From Escherichia phage p000v, in the sequence record NC_055781.1: a DNA stretch of 64,000 bases. One strand, 5' to 3'. The notes beneath the pieces are model-generated. The model was not told where the DNA came from and did not search any database. It saw only the letters and a program-made list of their open reading frames with translations. The position numbers and the translations under genes are program-made. This document shows positions 55,126 to 57,660 of the stretch, one piece after another (position 1 is the stretch's first letter; every line of letters starts with the position of its first letter).

Positions 55126-55440
55126 ATGAAAACGTATAAAGAATTTATTGCAGAATCCGCCAACCAACGCGTTGAAGGTGGTTATATTTGGATTGAACAA
55201 GTTGAGCCACCGAGCCGCACTTCTACAGGTAAATGGAAAATTACCGTTGATGGTCCTGGTGGTAAACGTAGGACTCTTAAAGAAATTAACGGGTACTATG
55301 AAGAAGCTCTTTCGGATGCAGGAACTTACATGATGCAAATCATGATTAAAAACCCTGAAAACCGTTTTGCAGCTAAAGTCTTCCGCCGCATCGGTAATAA
55401 ACTTTATGATGCATACTCTAAAAACTTCCCTAAAGAATAA
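55126..55440 (+). CDS. Internal protein (IPII-like) with capsid targeting sequence
   Basis: 104 aa; N-terminus MKTYKEFIAE|S; basic; size close to T4 IPII (100 aa). Confidence 0.65.
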   Translation: MKTYKEFIAESANQRVEGGYIWIEQVEPPSRTSTGKWKITVDGPGGKRRTLKEINGYYEEALSDAGTYMMQIMIKNPENRFAAKVFRRIGNKLYDAYSKNFPKE

Positions 55441-55465: not shown

Positions 55466-56044
55466 ATGAAAACTTATAAAGAATTTATCGCCGAGGCCTT
55501 TGCAGGAAAAGCTCAAGGCATTAATAAGGACGAGTGGAATTATCGTGGCGGAAACGGCTTTGACCCTAAAACTGCTCCACTTGAACGATATCTAGCCACA
55601 AAAGCTTCTGATTTTAAAGCATTCGCTTGGGAAGGACTTCGCTGGCGTAACGATCTAAATATTGAAGTTGACGGACTCAAATTTGCTCATATTGAAGATG
55701 TTGTTGCTAGTAACTTAGATGCAGCTTTTGTTAAAGCCGACAGCGACCTTCGTCGCTGGAATTTAAAACTGTTCTCTAAACAAAAAGGCCCGAAGTTTGT
55801 GCCTAAAGCAGGTAAATGGGTTATTGATAATAAATTGGCTAAAGCTGTCAACTACGCTGGGCTTGAATTTGCCAAGCATAAATCATCATGGAAAGGTCTT
55901 GATGCAATGACTTTCCGTAAAGAATTTGCCGATGTTATGGCTAAAGGCGGCTTTAAGGCAGAAATAGATACCTCTAAAGGTACGTTTAAAGACGCTAATG
56001 TTCAGTACGCTTACGCCGTTGCTAATGCAGCCCGTGGTAATTAA
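55466..56044 (+). CDS. Internal protein (IPIII-like) with capsid targeting sequence
   Basis: 192 aa; N-terminus MKTYKEFIAE|A; size close to T4 IPIII (194 aa). Confidence 0.65.
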   Translation: MKTYKEFIAEAFAGKAQGINKDEWNYRGGNGFDPKTAPLERYLATKASDFKAFAWEGLRWRNDLNIEVDGLKFAHIEDVVASNLDAAFVKADSDLRRWNLKLFSKQKGPKFVPKAGKWVIDNKLAKAVNYAGLEFAKHKSSWKGLDAMTFRKEFADVMAKGGFKAEIDTSKGTFKDANVQYAYAVANAARGN

Positions 56045-56222
56045 TAAGGCCTAAGTATAGGCCTATTTACATTTAAATAAAATGGGAACAACCTGGACCT
56101 CATGATTCTATGAGGGATTCCCGCCAACCTGTAATAAGGTCGAGCCCAAGTGCGGTAATGGGTAAATACAGAAATGGACAATTCATGCGCCACGGAATGG
56201 CCCAAACCTTAAGAGAAATAAT

Positions 56223-56762
56223 ATGAGAACATTTTTAACTGGACCTTATCTATCCCTGATGAATGCTTTTACACACCATTCTGATGCTAGAGTAGAAGAA
56301 ATTTGTAAGAACGGTTATATCCCACCGTTTGAAGACGTACTCAAGCAGTACTGTACACTTCGTTTAGACGGCGGCCGACAATCAGGTAAATCAATTGCTG
56401 TGACTAACTTTGCTGCTAATTGGCTGTATGATGGTGGAACAGTTATTGTTCTTTCTAATACTTCAGCTTATGCTAAAATTTCTGCTGGCAACATTGAAAA
56501 AGAATTTTCTCGTTATTCTAGCGACGATATTCGATTCCGTTTATTTACTGATTCTGTCCGTAGTTTTATTGGCAATGAAGGTTCTAAATTCCGTGGATTA
56601 ACGCTTTCTCGTATTCTGTACATAATTGACGAGCCTATTAAAGCTCCTGATATGGATAAGATTTACGACATACATATTAAAACAGTCCAACACTGTTGCA
56701 AAAGCAAATATTGCAACGGCGGTAATGCTCGTCCTCAATTTTTTGTGATTGGAATGCAATGA
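56223..56762 (+). CDS. Predicted P-loop NTPase
   Basis: 179 aa; Walker A GGRQSGKS and Walker B-like ILYIIDEP. Confidence 0.5.
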   Translation: MRTFLTGPYLSLMNAFTHHSDARVEEICKNGYIPPFEDVLKQYCTLRLDGGRQSGKSIAVTNFAANWLYDGGTVIVLSNTSAYAKISAGNIEKEFSRYSSDDIRFRLFTDSVRSFIGNEGSKFRGLTLSRILYIIDEPIKAPDMDKIYDIHIKTVQHCCKSKYCNGGNARPQFFVIGMQ

Positions 56763-57067
56763 TGACCACTATTGAAGTTTTTGAGTATTGTTATAACAGC
56801 TCAGTATGCAATAAAAGGGCTCTTGTAGAAAATTACGAGATTTACCATTTTAAACCTAAACGATATCGTTTGACTAAAGGTCCGTTCGCAGGGCAGCAGG
56901 TTCTTTGTACTGCTCCTAATGCACGACTGATGACTAGTATTCCGCATTTCAAAATGGAATTTATTGATGGACCATTTAAGGGATTAATCACTCAAAGTTT
57001 AATGGCGTTTAATTCTGACCCATTTTTGATTAAAGAAAAAACTTGGATAAATTTATTTTCTAATTGA
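56759..57067 (+). CDS. Hypothetical protein
   Basis: 102 aa ORF with ATGATG overlap. Confidence 0.5.
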   Translation: MMTTIEVFEYCYNSSVCNKRALVENYEIYHFKPKRYRLTKGPFAGQQVLCTAPNARLMTSIPHFKMEFIDGPFKGLITQSLMAFNSDPFLIKEKTWINLFSN

Positions 57068-57073
57068 GGTTAT

Positions 57074-57436
57074 ATGAAAGCATATCAAATTCTTGAAGGT
57101 GTACATAAAGGCACTATTTATTTTGAAGACGGTACTCAAGCCCGGATTATTGTCTCTAAGACTTTTAAAGAAGACACTATTGTAGACCCTGAAATTTTCT
57201 ACGGTTTGAATGCCCGTGAAATTGAAATTGAACATCAACCTAAAGTTAAAATTGAAGGTGGTCAACATTTGAACGTTAACGTTCTGCGTCGTGAAACTCT
57301 GGAAGATGCAGTTAAGCATCCGGAAAAATATCCGCAGCTGACCATCCGTGTATCCGGTTATGCAGTTCGCTTTAACTCTCTGACTCCAGAACAGCAACGC
57401 GACGTTATCGCTCGTACCTTTACTGAGAGCCTATAA
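57074..57436 (+). CDS. Autonomous glycyl radical cofactor (GrcA/YfiD-like; T4 Y06I-like)
   Basis: 120 aa; C-terminal half [61 protein letters not shown] carries the glycyl-radical RVSGY motif and matches E. coli GrcA as I recall it. Confidence 0.8.
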
Positions 57437-57660
57437 TGGCTAAATTGATTATAGAAGGGTCTGAAGATGTTTTAAAATGTTTTGCCGCCTGGTTTAGTTG
57501 CTCAGGCGAGCAATCATTCATTGAAGCATTTAGAATGGGTGATATTACTGGAAGCTATCCGACAACTGATATCACTGTACGTGGATATGGTATTAATGAG
57601 CCTATCCAATTGGTCGAATATGACCTTGCCACTGATGAGGAAATTCCTTATGTCGATTGA
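57436..57660 (+). CDS. Hypothetical protein
   Basis: 74 aa ORF, TAATG overlap with the grcA-like stop. Confidence 0.5.
   Translation: MAKLIIEGSEDVLKCFAAWFSCSGEQSFIEAFRMGDITGSYPTTDITVRGYGINEPIQLVEYDLATDEEIPYVD

Follow-up and report, generated by a model that had tools for sequence, protein, structure and literature searches.

The gene vs.6 of Escherichia phage p000v, located at positions 57074 to 57436 of the 64,000-nucleotide stretch of sequence record NC_055781.1 analysed here (the window), encodes a small glycyl-radical protein related to GrcA (YfiD) of Escherichia coli and to Y06I of phage T4. This gene is very probably an old phage homologue of grcA, in which E. coli grcA has overwritten the 57 codons that precede the final three, and whose product acts as a spare part for pyruvate formate-lyase (PFL). 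It is a real open reading frame (ORF) and represents the vs.6/Y06I orthologue in a Mosigvirus related to RB69; both the gene and the biochemical role of its product are already known from T4 Y06I, and there is nothing unusual in finding it in an RB69-like phage. Sequence comparisons indicate that E. coli grcA DNA recently overwrote the second half of vs.6, in the window phage and in T4 alike.

A host-like DNA tract in the 3′ part of vs.6

A first-pass annotation of the window had proposed that the C-terminal roughly 60 residues of Vs.6 match E. coli GrcA and the C-terminus of PflB residue for residue, and that this near-identity points to a recent capture or gene conversion. The match to GrcA is complete, as the last 60 residues (EGGQHL...TESL), which include the RVSGY motif, are identical at 60 of 60 positions; the match to the C-terminus of PflB had been overstated and comprises 48 of these residues. 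In a comparison with grcA from 80 host species, the same 60 residues were also present in the GrcA proteins from Erwinia, Serratia and Edwardsiella, that of Aggregatibacter has one change from A to T, and the proteins of Yersinia and the Pasteurellaceae are among those with the same residues or one to two changes. Furthermore, they are encoded by T4, RB69 (with one change from V to I) and Pseudotevenvirus phages of Enterobacter and Cronobacter, the latter using codons that deviate from those of E. coli at 27 of the 171 sites. Judged by this comparison, the C-terminal domain of GrcA is under extreme constraint. Amino-acid identity was rejected as a sign of recency, because the 60 residues hardly vary across the 80 host species and several phage genera; where a domain is nearly invariant, amino-acid identity alone cannot date a transfer.

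The proposed mosaic of phage and host sequence is borne out by the DNA instead, that is by nucleotide identity, by a supported breakpoint and by codon preference. Between positions 57254 and 57424, 167 of 171 nucleotides (97.7%) are identical to E. coli grcA, and the run of identity begins at 57252. Four positions differ (57268 C>T, 57269 C>T, 57388 G>A and 57397 G>A); the changes are all synonymous and all lead from G or C to A or T, which is the direction of the composition bias of the window phage. All 5,426 complete E. coli genomes match the tract at 95-97%; no closer E. coli allele was found among them as a source of the four changes (best match 96.8%), which are therefore considered to be the window phage's own. 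When the whole window was compared with these genomes by megablast, no match was found except for 57252-57444, which matched grcA and, weakly, pflB. PflB and TdcE were rejected as donors, since their nucleotide identity to the tract is 78-79%. Per 171 nucleotides, the tract differs from grcA of Citrobacter at 17 positions, of K. pneumoniae at 25, of Enterobacter at 25-27, of Yersinia at 25 and of Salmonella at 31, and E. coli grcA itself differs over the same nucleotides from Citrobacter at 13, from K. pneumoniae at 21 and from Salmonella at 29 positions. The phage tract is closer to E. coli than E. coli is to other genera, and is thus younger than the split of Escherichia from its nearest genera. 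The tract of RB69 contains two differences from E. coli, and those of T4 and phage OES_C-2 contain none; the exact run shared with E. coli grcA is 118 nucleotides long in the window and 176 nucleotides long in T4.

Codon choice leads to the same distinction between the two parts of the gene. Among the codons that specify the same amino acid, 54 of 60 in the C-terminal part are identical to those of E. coli grcA, compared with 9 of 17 in the N-terminal part. Phage lineages without recent transfer share 23-35 of about 51-60 codons with E. coli in the C-terminal part, and phage ECF2, which encodes the same 60 residues, shares 32 of 60; at a baseline of 53%, the chance of at least 54 identical codons out of 60 is approximately 8e-10. 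A comparison of the codon usage of the two halves, which had been suggested with the first-pass annotation, revealed host-like usage in the C-terminal half only: the codon-preference log-ratio, calculated for E. coli pflB versus the phage's own long ORFs, is +0.15 bits per codon for the C-terminal and -1.01 bits per codon for the N-terminal part, and 168 other 60-codon segments of the phage scored -0.90 ± 0.29 with a maximum of -0.12. The N-terminal half (GC content 33%, GC content at third codon positions (GC3) 22%) has a codon usage typical of the phage. GC3 was dropped as a weak discriminator in favour of the log-ratio; in E. coli grcA itself, GC3 reaches only about 0.43, as many of the codons it prefers have T or A at the third position.

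It could be argued that no transfer took place and that the similarity results from purifying selection on the glycyl-radical domain combined with convergence on E. coli-preferred codons. Indeed, the 60 residues are nearly invariant from the Enterobacterales to the Pasteurellaceae and in several phage genera, and grcA is highly expressed and has a strong codon bias. However, phages with the same 60 residues (ECF2 and records L104-L106) have around 53-58% of their codons in common with E. coli, with about 27 differences in 171 nucleotides, whereas the window and T4 share 90-97% of the codons. In addition, the tract is nearest to E. coli specifically, the distance to Citrobacter being 17 differences, and the N-terminal half of the same mRNA shows ordinary phage codon usage. 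Selection and convergence are therefore very unlikely to account for the tract.

Edges of the tract

The switch to host-type sequence is abrupt. Immediately upstream of the junction, the phage reads AAA GTT AAA ATT where the host has GAA GTT CGC GTT, and both are the same from GAA GGT GGT (57254) onwards. In an informative-site test with the triplet window, E. coli and Klebsiella phage KSKp, in which KSKp represented the phage-type parent, the ratio of host-like to phage-like sites was 15:64 before EGG and 26:3 after it (p = 2e-11); the same test yielded p = 6e-15 for T4. The maximum chi-squared method places the breakpoint between alignment columns 83 and 86, just before EGGQHL (chi-squared 45-55). 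The 5′ edge is the position at which the phage-type and host genes become alignable as DNA, and it is found a few codons inside the border that separates the disordered (1-60) from the structured part (61-127) of GrcA. As the edge is close to this domain boundary, such chimeras would be functional.

The 3′ edge is located three codons before the stop codon. Two of the terminal codons, GAG and CTA, are phage-type and common to other phage genera, and AGC is that of E. coli. This end of the gene varies between phages, with GAA in T4, AGC CTG in OES_C-2 and AGC in the window. The alignment revealed no homology past the vs.6 stop codon to the region downstream of E. coli grcA. The last codons may be held in place by selection on the ribosome-binding site of the downstream gene vs.5.

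The N-terminal half and the direction of transfer

The N-terminal 60 residues of Vs.6 had been described as different from GrcA. The identity is indeed as low as approximately 28%, yet the two halves are homologous: hhalign aligned profiles of nine phage and seven host N-terminal halves end-to-end over 60 columns with a probability of 97.2%, an E-value of 2.8e-11 and 28% identity. The phage N-terminal half lacks the invariant host motifs NSFWLLD and ARC and is 7 residues shorter than that of GrcA, and metagenomic phage sequences such as L111 contain an N-terminal half that is intermediate between the host and phage types. Based on these profile comparisons, vs.6 as a whole is an old phage-lineage homologue of grcA. 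Since the N-terminal halves are homologous, the event is best described as gene conversion between homologues and not as fusion with an unrelated domain; of the initial suggestion of a recent capture or gene conversion, the conversion stands and the capture of a foreign domain does not.

Two further observations concern GrcA-like proteins in other phages. The metagenomic phages L111-L116 of around 150 kb encode an N-terminal half between the host and the T4 type (GSIWLIE..ARCLVAKE), and their C-terminal half is nearest to grcA of the Pasteurellaceae. Stand-alone GrcA-like genes are also widespread beyond T4-like phages, for example in T5-like Demerecviridae (L011, L135-L160) and in jumbo phages of about 350 kb (L117-L120).

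A single recent capture of the whole E. coli grcA gene, followed by very fast divergence in the disordered N-terminal half, would agree with the homology of the N-terminal halves and with the finding that this half of GrcA is disordered and less constrained (PMC8683613). Such a scenario is highly improbable, however: the N-terminal half, with roughly 28% identity and saturated synonymous sites, adjoins a tract with 0-4 synonymous changes, and the switch occurs within about 6 nucleotides. Moreover, the phage-type N-terminal half (..ARxIVSK) is common to Jiaodavirus, Karamvirus, Slopekvirus and Pseudotevenvirus, whose C-terminal halves are not E. coli-like.

E. coli grcA is 98.5/98.9% identical in its two halves to that of Escherichia sp., 88.6/92.8% to Citrobacter, 84.1/88.3% to Klebsiella and 84.6/83.9% to Salmonella. 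When the tract was analysed in a neighbour-joining tree, the sequences of Tequatrovirus and Mosigvirus were all located within the Escherichia cluster (bootstrap 263/300, 88%). As the host gene agrees with the enteric phylogeny in both halves and the tract is foreign to the phage codon usage, the sequences argue for a transfer from host to phage. The reverse, in which E. coli would have acquired the 3′ half of grcA from a T-even phage, deserves consideration, because identity alone carries no direction and two-way exchange between host and phage was proposed for cyanophage psbA (PMC1484495). However, the relations of E. coli grcA to the enteric homologs match vertical descent and are similar in both halves, the allele is present in all 5,426 E. 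coli genomes, and the codon usage of the tract is foreign to the phage and not to E. coli; there is thus very little chance that the transfer ran in this direction. The vs.6 tract consequently combines the features by which gene conversion is recognized, namely a supported breakpoint, synonymous identity specific for one host lineage and a resolved direction.

Distribution and probable recurrence among phages

Searches with E. coli grcA found 644 phage records at 94-99.5% identity. Among the matches listed, the alignments start at grcA nucleotide 199-205, nearly all of them at 200. The near-identity to the host is thus not peculiar to this phage: about 640 records share the tract, and that of T4 Y06I is closer still (0/171 differences). 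An identity to host GrcA that is no higher than that of T4 Y06I and evenly distributed along the protein had been named as an argument against host capture; the identity is indeed no higher than in T4, but it is not evenly distributed. Host contamination or a chimeric phage assembly might produce such a pattern, and some 'viral' contigs in IMG/VR hold plain host grcA or pflB. However, the junction lies in frame within a conserved syntenic gene and recurs in phage genomes that were sequenced independently (about 640, T4 and RB69 among them), and the window carries private synonymous changes, which makes an artefact the remotest of the explanations considered.

The tract and the N-terminal half have different histories within the T-even phages. 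In 14 Tequatrovirus and Mosigvirus sequences, which were compared base by base, the 177-nucleotide N-terminal half contains 12 fixed and around 20 pairwise differences between the two genera, and the 171-nucleotide tract contains no fixed and around 5 pairwise differences. The majority allele is the E. coli allele at every variable site of the tract, and members with no difference from E. coli are found in both genera (T4, OES_C-2, L096 and L094). T4 and the Mosigvirus L094 differ at 18 of 177 positions in the N-terminal half versus 0 of 171 in the tract (p = 5e-6), and the contrast persists if only codons for the same amino acid are considered (11 of 54 versus 0 of 57, p = 2e-4). The N-terminal half of vs.6 in the window is 88.7% identical to that of T4. 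Since the genera differ in the N-terminal half and have no fixed difference in the tract, the tract is considered to have arisen after the remainder of the gene diverged.

A second case was found in Klebsiella phages of the genus Jiaodavirus (L005 1678-1851, L179 and L180; KSKp, RCIP0102 and Merci). Their tracts differ from K. pneumoniae grcA at 7 (Merci), 10 (RCIP0102) and 11 (KSKp) positions and from E. coli at 20-27, and they encode the Klebsiella-type L at residue 78 and E at residue 82 in phage numbering, where E. coli has E and K. The tract of Merci corresponds to K. pneumoniae grcA over the first approximately 45 codons and is phage-type thereafter, and thus has another 3′ boundary. In the neighbour-joining tree, the grouping of Jiaodavirus with K. 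pneumoniae has a bootstrap value of 64%. The K. pneumoniae-like tract very probably arose by an independent conversion, which indicates that the process is recurrent and has taken place more than once. No recent conversion was detected in Slopekvirus, Pseudotevenvirus, Karamvirus, Krischvirus, Biquartavirus and T5-like phages, which differ from every sampled host at 27-54 positions. Tracking of the isolation host was rejected, as phages from Yersinia and Hafnia are E. coli-like and Merci, which was isolated on K. aerogenes, is nearer to K. pneumoniae; host tracking takes place at the level of the main host of a phage lineage.

On balance, we lean towards the view that vs.6 is a 'self-updating' gene, in which the host chromosome repeatedly resets the C-terminal module to the allele of the current host genus while the N-terminal half evolves independently. 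The DNA homology of this module to grcA would suffice for the chromosome to serve time and again as a marker-rescue donor in lytic infection. By the same measure of confidence, the module would be reset to the E. coli allele in Tequatrovirus and Mosigvirus and to the K. pneumoniae allele in Jiaodavirus. Alternatively, a single conversion by the host could have been followed by spread from phage to phage within Tequatrovirus and Mosigvirus, without ongoing conversion by E. coli. T-even genomes are mosaic, and the identity between T4 and the window ranges from 33% to 100% along this region; furthermore, the 5′ boundary is common to all examined phages and the phage-type last codons are present in most of them. 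A common 5′ boundary is expected anyway if heteroduplex stops where homology ends, however, and the 3′ end is variable. The prevalence of the E. coli allele at every variable site together with zero-difference members in both genera forms a star-like pattern that fits repeated resetting, and the independent Klebsiella conversion shows that recurrence is possible. A single conversion with subsequent spread is therefore possible, but we regard it as doubtful.

Several further records concern grcA-like sequences in phages and databases. In the Klebsiella phage Miro (Slopekvirus, L006), codons 78-82 of vs.6 (CTG GAT GCG GTT GAA, encoding LDAVE) correspond to Raoultella grcA and the flanks are not host-like; this patch of five codons could be a short-patch conversion or a convergence. 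The IMG/VR contigs L122 and L162-L171 contain a full host-type grcA (Yersinia-like, 91%) or pflB (100% E. coli in L169) and seem to be host DNA that was binned as viral, or prophage flanks, and not phage-borne copies. The 'plasmid' records CP125156.1 (L181) and LR134122.1 (L182) are chromosomal sequence (5.37 Mb, containing grcA and srmB); in LR134122.1, a one-base insertion, which is probably a sequencing error, truncates the annotated grcA coding sequence.

Proposed mechanism and function

T-even phages recombine avidly with homologous cytosine-containing DNA, and marker rescue from plasmids is routine in T4 genetics. Host grcA would convert the homologous 3′ part of vs.6 by homologous gene conversion. 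Phage-type alleles share exact runs of 12-32 nucleotides with E. coli grcA inside the tract, and such runs may suffice to nucleate pairing with the host gene. The heteroduplex would then extend until homology ends on either side, which would lead to a constant 5′ edge. After the conversion, the window phage would have gained its four synonymous changes from G/C to A/T. Through recurrent overwriting, the functional end of the phage protein would stay the same as in the protein of the current host.

Vs.6 has the properties of the GrcA/YfiD family (IPR011140, TIGR04365), namely a small stand-alone size, a C-terminal domain with the RVSGY motif and a homologous N-terminal half. It matches the Pfam domain Gly_radical (PF01228) with residues 60-101 (E = 2.1e-18, 67 bits versus a cut-off of 22), the NCBIfam model TIGR04365 (GrcA) over profile positions 23-126 of 126 (158.4 bits, E = 9.3e-47) and PHROG 1209 along its entire length (E = 1.1e-62, with residues 1-120 aligned to profile positions 1-121). 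A match was also found to the nuclear magnetic resonance structure of E. coli GrcA (PDB 6OWR, E = 2e-42). Vs.6 and T4 Vs.6 (Y06I) are identical in 113 of 120 residues, and all 7 differences are located within the first 57 residues.

The PFL-activating enzyme activates both E. coli YfiD and T4 Y06I, which then bind PFL that oxygen has cleaved and restore its activity (Wagner et al. 2001, described in PMC8683613). In GrcA, residues 61-127 form the structured domain, which carries the radical glycine into PFL's active site, and the disordered residues 1-60 aid binding and activation (PMC8683613). Gly95 of Vs.6 is equivalent to Gly102 of GrcA and to Gly734 of PflB, the latter correspondence following PMC8683613. 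Given its 94% identity to Y06I, Vs.6 should acquire a radical from the PFL-activating enzyme and rescue PflB. By analogy with the T4 orthologue and E. coli GrcA, Gly95 would receive its radical from PflA; once PflB has been cleaved by oxygen at Gly734, the C-terminal domain of Vs.6 would fit into the damaged enzyme and restore the conversion of pyruvate to acetyl-CoA and formate. In this way, Vs.6 would sustain fermentative energy supply, with the production of acetyl-CoA, ATP and formate, during infection at low or fluctuating oxygen, and it probably also maintains the supply of formate as the reductant for the anaerobic (class III) ribonucleotide reductase of the phage. In an earlier study, Nolan et al. 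noted only the Gly_radical match and guessed a role in nucleotide metabolism (PMC1524935).

Some observations weigh against parts of this interpretation. The TIGR04365 score of Vs.6 (158.4) is below the curated equivalog cut-off of 170, and E. coli GrcA scores 233.9; the score falls short because the N-terminal half is divergent. The function of Vs.6 is carried over from the T4 orthologue, which differs at 7 residues of the N-terminal half. With regard to the supply of formate to NrdD, a motif search of the 64-kb window for a second glycyl-radical gene, nrdD, found none. With regard to repeated resetting, the base-by-base comparison covered 14 Tequatrovirus and Mosigvirus sequences, and independent events in the E. 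coli phages are not separable from the spread of one converted allele. Furthermore, the E. coli Krischvirus KMB43 carries no conversion (42 differences), and the E. coli tract is retained in Tequatroviruses that were isolated on Yersinia or Hafnia.

Gene neighbourhood and other features of the window

The coordinates of vs.6, its parts and its neighbours are listed in Table 1. The RVSGY motif corresponds to positions 57347-57361 and to residues 92-96 of Vs.6. The Shine-Dalgarno sequence of vs.6 overlaps the stop codon of vs.7 (TGA, 57065-57067), and the vs.6 stop codon and the vs.5 start codon share the sequence TAATG; the probable ribosome-binding site of vs.5 is located in the same stretch. 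Unlike the adjoining tract, vs.5 is approximately 70% identical to T4. According to annotation and BLAST, the order of the genes denV, vs.8, vs.7, vs.6, vs.5, regB, vs.1, vs and tk is collinear with RB69 and T4. Over the region around vs.6, the window is 97% identical to RB69, which identifies the phage as a Mosigvirus; vs.6 itself shares a nucleotide identity of 97-98% with orthologues of the RB69 group, where it is annotated as vs.6 or 'autonomous glycyl radical cofactor'.

Table 1. Position of vs.6, its segments and the adjacent genes in the window.
Feature	Position	Strand	Description and basis
vs.6 (T4 Y06I orthologue), coding sequence	57074..57436	+	120 amino acids plus stop, ATG start; ORF list
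Shine-Dalgarno sequence of vs.6 (GAGG)	57066..57069	+	4 nucleotides before ATG; read directly from the sequence
N-terminal 60 codons of vs.6, phage-lineage half	57074..57253	+	diverged homologue of GrcA's disordered N-terminal half
Putative host-derived tract of vs.6, 57 codons (EGGQHL...RTFT)	57254..57424	+	codon alignments, maximum chi-squared breakpoint
Gly95 codon in RVSGY, predicted glycyl radical site	57356..57358	+	motif; alignment to GrcA and PflB
Final three codons and stop of vs.6 (GAG AGC CTA TAA)	57425..57436	+	alignments
vs.7, upstream neighbour	56759..57067	+	synteny with RB69 and T4; PHROG 2049
vs.5, downstream neighbour, translationally coupled	57436..57660	+	synteny with RB69; PHROG 1986

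Further upstream, vs.8 is split in the window: a 38-amino-acid ORF at 56110..56226 (MRDSRQPVIRSS...) joins the 179-amino-acid vs.8 ORF (56223-56762) by an ATGA overlap, and the T4 counterpart is a single ORF of 216 amino acids (L004 2017..2667). The detached 5′ piece (56084-56226) is 98% identical to T4, and its flanks are 70-88% identical. The arrangement could represent a pair of coupled genes, a gene with a frameshift, or a programmed frameshift. The conserved, non-coding-looking stretch 56084-56222 was rejected as a candidate RNA, as it has no Rfam match and a fold z-score of -0.04; it is the detached 5′ part of vs.8. A terminator-like hairpin at 56047-56064 (AGGCCTAAGTATAGGCCT, followed by a T-rich tail) is located directly after the IpIII-like ORF 55466..56044, which is 89% identical to the T4 ipIII region. 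This ORF and the adjacent ORF 55126-55440 both start with MKTYKEFIAE, which is the pattern of T4 internal head proteins with a common capsid-targeting leader.

Comparison with known systems and significance

The closest counterpart of Vs.6 is T4 Vs.6 (Y06I), which is encoded at the same place between vs.7 and vs.5, has the same length and identical last 60 residues and shows the same mosaic with an E. coli-like 3′ tract. The two differ by the 7 substitutions in the N-terminal half, by the 3′ codons, which are GAA AGT TTG in T4 and GAG AGC CTA in the window, and by the number of changes from E. coli in the tract, with none in T4 versus four synonymous ones in the window. E. coli GrcA is likewise a stand-alone glycyl-radical protein of approximately 14 kDa, whose residues 68-127 correspond to residues 61-120 of Vs.6 and whose N-terminal half is homologous and collinear; in contrast to GrcA, Vs.6 is phage-encoded and part of an early-gene cluster. 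E. coli grcA is under anaerobic and acid control of the host. The C-terminal domain of PflB, which is lost on oxygen cleavage, represents the same fold element and also contains RVSGY; however, PflB is an enzyme of 760 amino acids, whereas Vs.6 is the replaceable module only.

Intragenic recombination between host and phage has been described for cyanophage psbA and psbD (Zeidner 2005; Sullivan 2006, PMC1484495). As in vs.6, segments of an auxiliary metabolic gene of T4-like phages were exchanged with the host, and the exchange was recognized by patchiness in composition and recombination tests. The exchange in vs.6 differs in that it consists of a single, sharp and near-perfect tract at a protein-domain boundary, concerns the T-even/E. 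coli system and has a parallel in Klebsiella phages. No prior report of the vs.6/grcA nucleotide mosaic or of host tracking was found in the searchable literature, although a brief earlier mention is possible.

T-even phages destroy the DNA of their host, and their own has essentially no identity to that of E. coli. The vs.6 tract is a clean and experimentally tractable example of gene conversion from a host to a virulent phage, and it shows how a phage can keep a module that interacts with the host matched to the host enzymes PflB and PflA. If vs.6 is indeed self-updating, it would document ongoing gene conversion from the chromosome to a virulent phage in the T4/E. coli model and would account for the one stretch in this part of the T-even genome whose DNA is identical to that of E. 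coli.

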